DNA from: Escherichia coli
Lineage (GTDB): Bacteria; Pseudomonadota; Gammaproteobacteria; Enterobacterales; Enterobacteriaceae
DNA: 1,987 nucleotides
Assembly (NCBI RefSeq): GCF_003334385.1
Contig: NZ_QOWN01000103.1
Strand: one strand, 5' to 3'
The notes beneath the pieces are model-generated. The model did not search any database and was not told the DNA's origin. It saw only the letters and a list, made by a program, of their open reading frames with translations. Positions 1 through 1,987 of the stretch are shown in pieces. Both the position numbers and the translations under genes were made by a program. Within the stretch, counting starts at the first letter, position 1. Every line of letters begins with the position of its first letter.

Positions 1-471
1 TGGTGGCTGGTCTGCCGGGGGACGATTCATAAGTTCCGCTGTGTGCCGCATCTCACCGGGCGGCGCTTTGAGCACGGGGTGACGGACTGTTACACGCTGT
101 TCCGGGATGCTTATCATCTGGCGGGGATTGAGATGCCGGATTTTCATCGCGGGGATGACTGGTGGCGTCACGGTCAGAATCTCTATCTTGACAATATGGA
201 GGCGACTGGTTTTTACCGTGTCGCACTGACAGAGGCGCAGCCTGGCGACGTGCTGCTGTGCTGCTTTGGTTCATCGGTGCCGAATCATGCCGCCATTTAC
301 TGTGGTGACGGCGAGCTGCTGCACCATATTCCTGAACAACTGAGTAAACGAGAGAGGTATACCGACAAATGGCAGCGACGCACACACTCCCTCTGGCGTC
401 ACCGGGCATGGCGCGCATCTGCCTTTACGGGGATTTGCAACGATTTGGCCGCCGCATCGACCTTCGTGTGA
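1..471 (+). CDS. K: Phage tail tip assembly protein K (gpK-like), C-terminal part only; 5' end lies upstream of the window. The portion present looks like an NlpC/P60-type peptidase domain.
   Basis: Frame 1 is open from base 1 to the TGA at 469-471 (translation begins WWLVCRGTIHKFRCVPHLTGRRFEHGVTDCYTLF... and ends ...NDLAAASTFV). The ORF track's start at 43 is a GTG inside this frame, not the true start. The translation matches my recollection of the lambda gpK C-terminus. A Cys in a D-C-Y context (codon 88-90) and a His in an N-H-A-A-I-Y context (codon 286-288) fit NlpC/P60 catalytic motifs. Lies immediately upstream of I and J, as in lambda. Confidence 0.9.
   Translation, partial: WWLVCRGTIHKFRCVPHLTGRRFEHGVTDCYTLFRDAYHLAGIEMPDFHRGDDWWRHGQNLYLDNMEATGFYRVALTEAQPGDVLLCCFGSSVPNHAAIYCGDGELLHHIPEQLSKRERYTDKWQRRTHSLWRHRAWRASAFTGICNDLAAASTFV
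350..357 (+). promoter_or_regulatory. Possible purine-rich ribosome binding site for I, lying inside the K coding sequence
   Basis: GAGAGAGG at about 350-357, roughly 11 nt upstream of the I ATG at 369. The spacing is slightly long, and initiation may instead depend on coupling to K translation. Confidence 0.3.
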
Positions 472-1040
472 AAACGGGGGCTGAAGCCATCCGCGCACTG
501 GCCACACAGCTCCCGGTGTTTCGTCAGAAACTGAGCGACGGCTGGTATCAGGTACGGATTGCCGGGCGGGACGTCAGCACGTCCGGGTTAACGGCGCAGT
601 TACATGAGACTCTGCCTGATGGCGCTGTGATTCATATTGTTCCCAGAGTCGCCGGGGCCAAGTCAGGTGGCGTATTCCAGATTGTCCTGGGGGCTGCCGC
701 CATTGCCGGATCATTCTTTACCGCCGGAGCCACCCTTGCAGCATGGGGGGCAGCCATTGGGGCCGGTGGTATGACCGGCATCCTGTTTTCTCTCGGTGCC
801 AGTATGGTACTTGGTGGTGTGGCGCAGATGCTGGCACCGAAAGCCAGGACGCCCACGGCAGCAAGTACAGATAACGGCAAACAGAACACCTATTTCTCCT
901 CACTGGATAACATGGTTGCCCAGGGCAATGTTCTGCCCGTTCTGTACGGTGAAATGCGCGTGGGGTCGCGGGTGGTCTCTCAGGAGATCAGCACGGCAGA
1001 CGAAGGGGATGGTGGTCAGGTTGTGGTGATTGGTCGCTGA
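369..1040 (+). CDS. I: Phage tail tip assembly protein I (gpI-like), complete, 223 aa
   Basis: ATG at 369-371, TGA at 1038-1040, 223 codons. Translation MAATHTLPLASPGMARICLYGDLQRFGRRIDLRVKTGAEAIRALATQLP... matches my recollection of lambda gpI in sequence and length. Overlaps the 3' end of K by 103 nt in a different frame, as in lambda. N-terminal ~90 aa is charged/mixed (reported ubiquitin-like fold in gpI), followed by a long Gly/Ala-rich hydrophobic stretch. Confidence 0.95.
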   Translation: MAATHTLPLASPGMARICLYGDLQRFGRRIDLRVKTGAEAIRALATQLPVFRQKLSDGWYQVRIAGRDVSTSGLTAQLHETLPDGAVIHIVPRVAGAKSGGVFQIVLGAAAIAGSFFTAGATLAAWGAAIGAGGMTGILFSLGASMVLGGVAQMLAPKARTPTAASTDNGKQNTYFSSLDNMVAQGNVLPVLYGEMRVGSRVVSQEISTADEGDGGQVVVIGR

Positions 1041-1057
1041 TGCAAAACATTTTATGT

Positions 1058-1086
1058 GAAACCGCCTGCGGGCGGTTTTGTCGTTT
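1058..1086 (+). terminator. Intergenic GC-rich hairpin followed by a T-rich tract; possible intrinsic terminator or mRNA stabilising / processing structure between I and J
   Basis: Perfect inverted repeat AAACCGCC (1059-1066) and GGCGGTTT (1071-1078) with a 4-nt loop TGCG (1067-1070), followed by TTTTGTCGTTT. An A-rich run (TGCAAAACATTTTATGTGAAA) precedes it. The stem is only 8 bp with 5 GC pairs and the T-tract is interrupted, so terminator strength is uncertain. Confidence 0.35.
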
Positions 1087-1088
1087 AT

Positions 1089-1092
1089 GGAG
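1089..1092 (+). promoter_or_regulatory. Shine-Dalgarno ribosome binding site for J
   Basis: GGAG located 8 nt upstream of the J ATG at 1101. Confidence 0.6.
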
Positions 1093-1100
1093 CGTGACGA

Positions 1101-1987
1101 ATGGGTAAAGGCAGCAGTAAGGGGCATACCCCGCGCGAAGCGAAGGACAACCTGAAGTCCACGCAGCTGCTGAGTGTGATCGATGTCATCAGCGAAGGGC
1201 CGATTGAAGGTCCGGTGGATGGATTAAAAAGCGTGCTGCTGAACAGTACGCCGGTGCTGGACAGTGAGGGGAATACCAATATCTCCGGCGTCACGGTGGT
1301 GTTCCGGGCAGGTGAGCAGGAGCAGACGCCGCCGGAGGGCTTTGAATCCTCCGGTTCCGAGACGGTGCTGGGTACGGAAGTGAAATACGACACGCCGATT
1401 ACCCGGACCATCACGTCTGCAAACATCGACCGTCTGCGCTTTACCTTCGGTGTGCAGGCACTGGTGGAAACCACCTCAAAGGGGGACCGGAATCCGTCGG
1501 AAGTCCGCCTGCTGGTTCAGATACAGCGTAACGGTGGCTGGGTGACGGAAAAAGACATCACCATTAAAGGCAAAACCACCTCACAGTATCTGGCATCGGT
1601 GGTGGTGGGTAACCTGCCGCCGCGCCCGTTCAATATCCGGATGCGCAGGATGACGCCGGACAGCACCACAGATCAGCTGCAGAACAAAACGCTCTGGTCG
1701 TCATACACCGAAATCATCGATGTGAAACAGTGCTACCCGAACACGGCACTGGTCGGCGTACAGGTGGATTCGGAGCAGTTCGGCAGCCAGCAGGTGAGCC
1801 GTAATTATCATCTGCGCGGGCGTATTCTGCAGGTGCCGTCGAACTATAACCCGCAGACGCGGCAATACAGCGGTATCTGGGACGGAACGTTTAAGCCAGC
1901 ATACAGCAATAACATGGCCTGGTGTCTGTGGGATATGCTGACCCATCCACGCTACGGCATGGGGAAACGTCTTGGTGCGGCGGATGT
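1101..1987 (+). CDS. J: Phage tip attachment / host specificity protein J (gpJ-like), N-terminal 295 aa only; 3' end lies downstream of the window
   Basis: ATG at 1101-1103, preceded by GGAG at 1089-1092 with an 8-nt spacer. Frame stays open to the window end. Translation MGKGSSKGHTPREAKDNLKSTQLLSVIDVISEGPIEGPVDGLKSVLLNSTPVLD... matches my recollection of the lambda gpJ N-terminus. Position directly after I with a 60-nt spacer matches lambda. Confidence 0.95.
   Translation, partial: MGKGSSKGHTPREAKDNLKSTQLLSVIDVISEGPIEGPVDGLKSVLLNSTPVLDSEGNTNISGVTVVFRAGEQEQTPPEGFESSGSETVLGTEVKYDTPITRTITSANIDRLRFTFGVQALVETTSKGDRNPSEVRLLVQIQRNGGWVTEKDITIKGKTTSQYLASVVVGNLPPRPFNIRMRRMTPDSTTDQLQNKTLWSSYTEIIDVKQCYPNTALVGVQVDSEQFGSQQVSRNYHLRGRILQVPSNYNPQTRQYSGIWDGTFKPAYSNNMAWCLWDMLTHPRYGMGKRLGAAD

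Follow-up and report, generated by a model that had tools for sequence, protein, structure and literature searches.

The 1,987-nucleotide (nt) stretch of Escherichia coli DNA analysed here (contig NZ_QOWN01000103.1), referred to throughout as the window, is almost certainly an internal piece of a lambda-type late (tail) operon. It carries a K–I–J tail-tip module that is collinear with positions 14405–16391 of the phage lambda genome, and a lambdoid prophage of E. coli type is a more probable carrier than a lambda-type siphophage. This K–I–J content is already known, and nothing was found in the window that is absent from lambda itself. The genes are laid out as follows.

1–471, plus strand: 3' part of gene K (tail-tip assembly protein K); frame open from base 1, stop codon at 469–471, 5' end cut by the window
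369–1040, plus strand: gene I (tail-tip assembly protein I), complete; 223 amino acids plus stop codon, in the −1 frame relative to K
1041–1100, plus strand: I–J spacer, 60 nt
1101–1987, plus strand: 5' part of gene J; ATG at 1101, first 295 codons, 3' end cut by the window

Alignment of the entire window with lambda (NC_001416, 14405–16391) yielded no gaps and 99 mismatches, corresponding to a nucleotide identity of 95.0%, and the similarity of K, I and J between the two is far beyond chance. The identity was 92.4% in the K part, 95.8% in I and 96.3% in the J part, while 101 of the 103 positions of the K/I overlap and 56 of the 60 positions of the spacer were the same. At the protein level, 146 of 156 residues were shared in K (93.6%), 218 of 223 in I (97.8%) and 292 of 295 in J (99.0%, residues 1–295 of gpJ). 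The substitutions track the codon phases of the three genes, with third codon positions accounting for 25 of 34 mismatches in K and 18 of 26 in I, both counted without the overlap, and for 28 of 33 in J.

The genes, their order and frames, the overlap, the length of gpI, the spacer with its hairpin and the start of J were all the same as in lambda, for which the annotation places K at 14276–14875, I at 14773–15444 and J at 15505–18903. A preliminary description, made from the letters of the window, had drawn attention to a 103-nt overlap of K and I, a 60-nt spacer and a gpI of 223 amino acids. All three were located at the positions it had given, the overlap following from 471 − 369 + 1, and its estimate of a coding density near 100 percent compares with a computed value of 97% ((1987 − 60)/1987). 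The overlap figure hinges on the accepted start of I, on which the public records disagree. Base composition was even along the window (55–62% G+C), and the repeats within it were short and at chance level only.

Comparisons with lambda and with E. coli prophages had both been proposed in the preliminary description; the former gave the gapless alignment reported above and the latter gave identities of up to 98.2%. In the phage collection, 226 records matched at least 80% of the window (megablast E = 0), the top record being PhiR42_1 (PV340562) with 96.6% identity over the entire window and with one nucleotide missing from the spacer, at position 1049, in comparison with it. Some match was detected in 4510 of 5426 complete E. 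coli genomes, with a median of three places per genome. The top prophage match was in strain ECAMP047 (NZ_CP196265), with 98.2% identity over the entire window, and lies within a complete set of head and tail genes in lambda order. Two points count against the assignment to a prophage of this type: no exact copy of the window was present in any of the collections searched (phage records and complete E. coli genomes), and 2 kb is too short to judge whether this copy belongs to a functional phage.

The preliminary description had identified the three reading frames as the C-terminal part of gpK, the whole of gpI and the N-terminal part of gpJ, and the frames, the lambda alignment and the family and structure matches all agree with this. 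The K fragment matched the full Pfam NLPC_P60 model (PF00877, E 5.6e-13, positions 1–105 of 105), together with phrog_30 and phrog_2552 in the PHROG search. It can be assigned from these matches to a C-terminal NlpC/P60 (C40) peptidase domain, with candidate catalytic residues and a predicted activity. The N-terminal JAB/MPN region of gpK would be encoded upstream of the point where the window begins; in the closest prophage, K encodes 247 amino acids and starts just after L. The candidate residues, each of which is the same in lambda gpK, are listed below.

88–90, plus strand: candidate catalytic Cys30 of the K fragment, in a TDCY/DC motif, placed by inspection
286–288, plus strand: candidate catalytic His96, aligned with a histidine of the RipC NlpC/P60 structure
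322–324, plus strand: candidate catalytic His108, aligned with a histidine of the RipC NlpC/P60 structure

A structure search with the K fragment recovered no solved structure of gpK, which agrees with reports that gpK, though required for lambda tail assembly, is missing from virions (PMC10721106, PMC12617516).

The J fragment was recognised by the NCBIfam model lambda_TipJ (NF049904) with 657.5 bits over model positions 1–295 of 1163, the 1950-bit cut-off being beyond the reach of a fragment of 295 residues. Pfam FNIII-A_GpJ also matched (E 8.2e-42), placing an FNIII-A domain at residues 86–207, and the PDB chains 8IYK_J and 9E7M_J matched with E of about 1e-197 (8IYK_J, 1.8e-197). The fragment thus appears to be the N-terminal part of the central tail fibre, or tip attachment protein, J, the receptor-binding C-terminus lying outside the window.

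The gene for gpI is the only one of the three that is complete, and it sits between the K-type NlpC/P60 gene and the J-type central fibre gene. Pfam Lambda_tail_I (PF06805) covered residues 14–97 of gpI (model 2–83 of 83, E 1.8e-28), phrog_32 matched with E 9.9e-83, chain I of PDB 8IYK matched the full-length protein with E 1.9e-138, and chain I of PDB 9E7M matched residues 133–222 with E 1.8e-49. The following parts of the protein can be distinguished.

408–659, plus strand: ubiquitin-like beta-grasp domain of gpI, residues 14–97 (Pfam, AlphaFold2 (AF2) model and Foldseek)
666–671, plus strand: Gly-Gly of gpI, residues 100–101
672–833, plus strand: Gly/Ala-rich hydrophobic stretch of gpI, about residues 102–155
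768–1037, plus strand: plug part of gpI, residues about 134–223, resolved in lambda virions

The lambda tail tip is built of gpJ, gpI, gpL, gpM and gpH, and residues 135–223 or 134–222 of gpI are resolved in virions, where this C-terminal part forms a trimeric plug in the lumen of the tip and holds the C-terminal end of gpH, the tape-measure protein (PMC10721106, PMC12617516). In the window, the plug part differs from that of lambda at four amino acids.

An AF2 model of gpI was built from 11 homologues. Residues 13–94 were modelled with moderate confidence, at a predicted local distance difference test (pLDDT) of 60–75, in the topology strand-strand-helix-strand-helix-strand. With this N-domain, the top 14 PDB folds returned by Foldseek were MoaD, SAMP1, CysO or Urm1 (target template modelling (TM) scores 0.60–0.74, best E 2e-3), and ThiS was also among the best; the leading hits, to MoaD, SAMP1, Urm1 and ThiS, had target TM scores of 0.65–0.74. 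Across the 11 homologues, the glycine motif that follows the domain retained an invariant G96 and G101 and a nearly invariant K98. More distant gpI homologues, from HK97/HK022-type phages, mEp043, phiES15, a Klebsiella phage and the tail tips of F-type pyocins (PDB 25vf, 9l9p), belong to the same family with 33–36% amino acid identity; they have in common a conserved G-x-K-x-x-G that follows the beta-grasp domain, their C-terminal domain is likewise conserved, and a J-type fibre gene comes next.

The modelling and fold searches support a ubiquitin/MoaD-like beta-grasp fold for the N-domain of gpI, as was predicted by Iyer et al. in 2006, who further predicted that the peptidase domains of gpK act on it (PMC1779556). 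The ubiquitin-like domain, ending in the conserved Gly-Gly, would then be removed by gpK during assembly. Set against this are the poor overall quality of the gpI model (mean pLDDT 48) and the fact that cleavage of gpI by gpK stays a prediction; a search for newer literature on ubiquitin-like processing by gpK and gpI returned nothing beyond the 2006 paper. Whether gpK cuts the ubiquitin-like domain off gpI is a question nearly twenty years old, and the window does not advance it.

No undescribed system is evident in the window, as the preliminary description had held. There is no inserted gene or domain relative to lambda, and the Rfam, PADLOC, PHROG and NCBIfam searches found nothing else on either strand. 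All 4227 Rfam families, searched on both strands with E values of up to 1 allowed, gave no match; nor did PADLOC defence models against K, I and J and the pair of longest antisense open reading frames (ORFs), or NCBIfam and PHROGs against six minus-strand ORFs of 75–129 amino acids.

The part of the window that the preliminary description had left unexplained was the 60-nt spacer, and nothing else. Its account of the remainder stands, but the spacer too can be explained, as a terminator-like hairpin followed by the Shine-Dalgarno sequence of J.

1059–1086, plus strand: terminator-like element; stem AAACCGCC/GGCGGTTT (1059–1066 with 1071–1078), loop TGCG, T-rich tract TTTTGTCGTTT (1076–1086)
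1089–1092, plus strand: Shine-Dalgarno GGAG, preceding the ATG of J by 8 nt; OM418627 labels these four bases as a ribosome-binding site

The folded RNA has a stem of 8 bp, including five G–C pairs, with a 4-nt loop and the T tract directly after it, and the hairpin is identical in lambda. Close to the J start, a G to C substitution at position 1098 changes the GAGGA of lambda to GACGA; a second Shine-Dalgarno-like motif present in lambda is lost by this change and the GGAG at 1089–1092 is kept. Each of the eight lineages compared (lambda, Ayreon, Gifsy-1, Gifsy-2, HK542, mEp043, phiES15 and Stx2a) had a GC hairpin with a T-run immediately ahead of J, and four stem cores were represented.

CCGCC/GGCGG: lambda, Ayreon, Gifsy-1, Gifsy-2 and phiES15
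CCACC/GGTGG: HK542
GTGC/GCAC: mEp043
GGCACCC/GGGTGCC: Stx2a

When the eight hairpins were aligned, 93.8% of cells were paired and five of the eight pairs carried compensatory changes, values reached by none of 500 shuffles, and sliding the register reduced the pairing to 37–64%. The aligned set was hand-trimmed around hairpins that had already been found, and the mEp043 row was misaligned by one column. A consensus scan for promoters and terminators gave counts at the level of shuffled sequence and missed the hairpin, probably since a G–T extension of the stem consumes the T-run. The Ayreon GenBank record (MF807953) labels the element 'terminator', a computational annotation. These data suggest that the hairpin between I and J is a conserved terminator-like element that is seldom annotated.

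The hairpin is most likely an intrinsic terminator. During lytic growth it would be read through by Q-modified RNA polymerase, and unmodified transcription would stop before J. Several observations weigh against this interpretation. The fold of the spacer alone is unexceptional (z = −1.67, with 15 of 200 shuffles folding as well), the paired fraction given above is inflated by the hand-trimming, and a literature search found no experiment or paper on termination at this hairpin.

It is rather unlikely that the hairpin serves instead as an element of mRNA stability or processing, or as a translational tuner that sets how much gpJ is made in comparison with gpK and gpI. Such a role would suit a hairpin within an operon whose polymerase is Q-modified and terminator-resistant, and would be in keeping with its conserved position just upstream of the J start and with a T-run that stops 2 nt short of the GGAG of J. 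What argues for termination is that the full shape of an intrinsic terminator (GC stem, short loop and immediate T-run) is retained in all eight lineages and that one record annotates it as such; the conserved T-run, furthermore, is needed by a terminator and not obviously by a stability hairpin. A broader proposal is that the hairpin with its T-run before J has an important function as a terminator or insulator within the operon, conserved in lambda-, Gifsy-, Stx-, HK97- and mEp043-type phages, which would silence J, and lom and stf downstream of it, unless the polymerase is Q-modified and which would also mark a preferred slot for morons, the extra 39-codon ORF of Stx phages being located exactly at this place. 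This is possible, and is put forward tentatively.

Stx2a_WGPS6, VT1-Sakai, Gifsy-1 and Gifsy-2 resemble the window in having K, I and J in this order, a 103-nt overlap and a hairpin with a T-run before J, and the nucleotide identity of the Stx-converting phages, Gifsy-1 and Gifsy-2 to the window is about 72–76%. The I–J spacer is 71 nt in Gifsy-2 and 240 nt in the Stx phages, in contrast to 60 nt in the window, and the Stx spacer has the stem GGCACCC/GGGTGCC and an extra ORF of 39 codons; there is no I–J spacer in phiKp_7-1, unlike the window.

In Stx2a_WGPS6 and VT1-Sakai, where the spacer occupies positions 1348–1587 of the compared stretches, its 39-codon ORF is unannotated and begins MKINVMELFF; it has its own hairpin before it and a terminator-like hairpin after it, a moron-like layout. 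In HK542, a moron gene of 74 amino acids resembling gp20 of HK022 lies between K and I (positions 415–677 of the compared stretch) and has its own annotated rho-independent terminator. Given the HK542 gene at the K/I junction and the Stx ORF at the I/J junction, both junctions appear to tolerate the insertion of small genes in certain lambdoid lineages.

Gene I would be translated from the ATG at 369, which lies within the end of K and in the −1 frame relative to it. The site from which ribosomes would load is also contained in K.

349–356, plus strand: Shine-Dalgarno-like GAGAGAGG of gene I, 12 nt upstream of the ATG at 369, inside the K coding sequence

This GAGAGAGG site bears a ribosome-binding site annotation in record OM418627. 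The start codon assigned to I differs between the records for PhiR42_1 and for E. coli prophages, and three positions are in use: ATG 369 (lambda and several phages), TTG 435 (PhiR42_1) and GTG 468 (RefSeq E. coli and Ayreon). The last of these would give a gpI of 190 amino acids and an overlap with K of 4 nt. With either of the later starts, the beta-grasp domain, which starts at residue 14, would lose its first strand or its first two. Of the candidate starts, ATG 369, together with its GAGG 12 nt upstream, was alone in being common to lambda, Ayreon, Gifsy-1 and the Stx2a phage; in Stx phages leucine takes the place of Met14 of gpI, and Gifsy-1 lacks the GTG at 468. The comparative data favour the lambda-style ATG 369 over the shorter starts, against which it must be set that no direct N-terminal determination of gpI was found. 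In HK542, mEp043, phiES15 and phiKp_7-1, gpI is without the N-terminal extension of 9–13 residues and the overlap with K is 4–16 nt or none, which suggests that the long K/I overlap is characteristic of the lambda clade.

An arrangement in which one frame opens inside another, with I in the −1 frame of K and open for 124 nt ahead of the K stop, could in principle hide a programmed −1 frameshift, analogous to lambda G/GT, that would yield a K–I fusion protein (JAB-NlpC/P60-Ubl-plug). Fusions of TAPI to TAPK or TAPJ do occur in some prophages (Iyer et al., PMC1779556), and phrog_28576, a profile of 399 positions, matches the K fragment and then gpI. Nevertheless, a slippery heptamer of the form X XXY YYZ was found in the K frame of the overlap in none of four sequences (window, lambda, Gifsy-1 and Stx2a). 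The conserved ATG and its Shine-Dalgarno sequence account for independent initiation of I, and in distant relatives K and I overlap by just 4–16 nt or have a separate gene between them. Finally, the matches of phrog_28576 extend to an ORF within I that is out of frame. Such a frameshift is therefore considered highly improbable.

The profile phrog_28576 is annotated as of 'unknown function', and its matches in the window are to the K fragment, to gpI and to the frame-1 ORF at 796–1029 (E 4e-22). Because the last of these is an out-of-frame ORF within I, the pattern suggests that the profile derives from gene calls that were frameshifted or fused, in lambdoid genomes nearly identical to one another, and is no real family.

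That the window holds an undescribed overlapping gene is scarcely credible, although three candidate ORFs exist: 1085–1474 (minus strand, 129 amino acids), 53–418 (minus strand, 121 amino acids) and 796–1029 (plus strand, 77 amino acids). The first, antisense to J, is open in five lambda-clade sequences, including lambda, Ayreon, Gifsy-1 and Stx2a, but acquires two to three stops in Gifsy-2 and HK542; the second, antisense to K, is interrupted by stops in Gifsy-1 and Stx2a; and the third is not kept in Gifsy-1. The antisense ORFs were without a PHROG, NCBIfam or PADLOC match, phrog_28576 was the single match of the ORF at 796–1029 (NCBIfam and PHROG), and the substitutions obey the codon phases of K, I and J. 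Working by hand from the coordinates, the J-antisense frame was found to share wobble positions with J, and it is in an antisense frame of this kind that chance most often leaves long ORFs intact. Its openness consequently says little, and the ORF at 1085–1474 is most likely a by-product of J codon usage.

The differences between the window and lambda are all substitutions, and two dense patches of them were apparent, in K (nt 189–249) and in I (nt 848–881). The K patch contains 21 mismatches and results in eight amino acid changes between residues 51 and 78 of the fragment, while the I patch converts the RIQT of lambda to TAAS at residues 163–166 of gpI. The TAAS variant is held in common with PhiR42_1 and ECAMP047, both of which carry another allele of the K patch. 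The segment that holds the K patch (nt 150–330) was found in other E. coli genomes, with at least 99% identity in 46 records; the eight listed were at 100%. As the K-patch allele is present at 100% in other E. coli genomes and absent from the best full-length matches, the window appears to be a mosaic of circulating prophage alleles, produced by the patchwise recombination that is usual for lambdoid prophages.

Taken as a whole the window is a clean negative; its tail-tip genes are those of textbook lambda, and it gives no grounds for claiming a new system. The comparison does have a value for annotation, as the shorter starts given to I in public records would cut into the ubiquitin-like domain of gpI. 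If the hairpin before J were confirmed as an intra-operon terminator or insulator, it would be a small, under-described regulatory feature of lambda itself and not one specific to the window.

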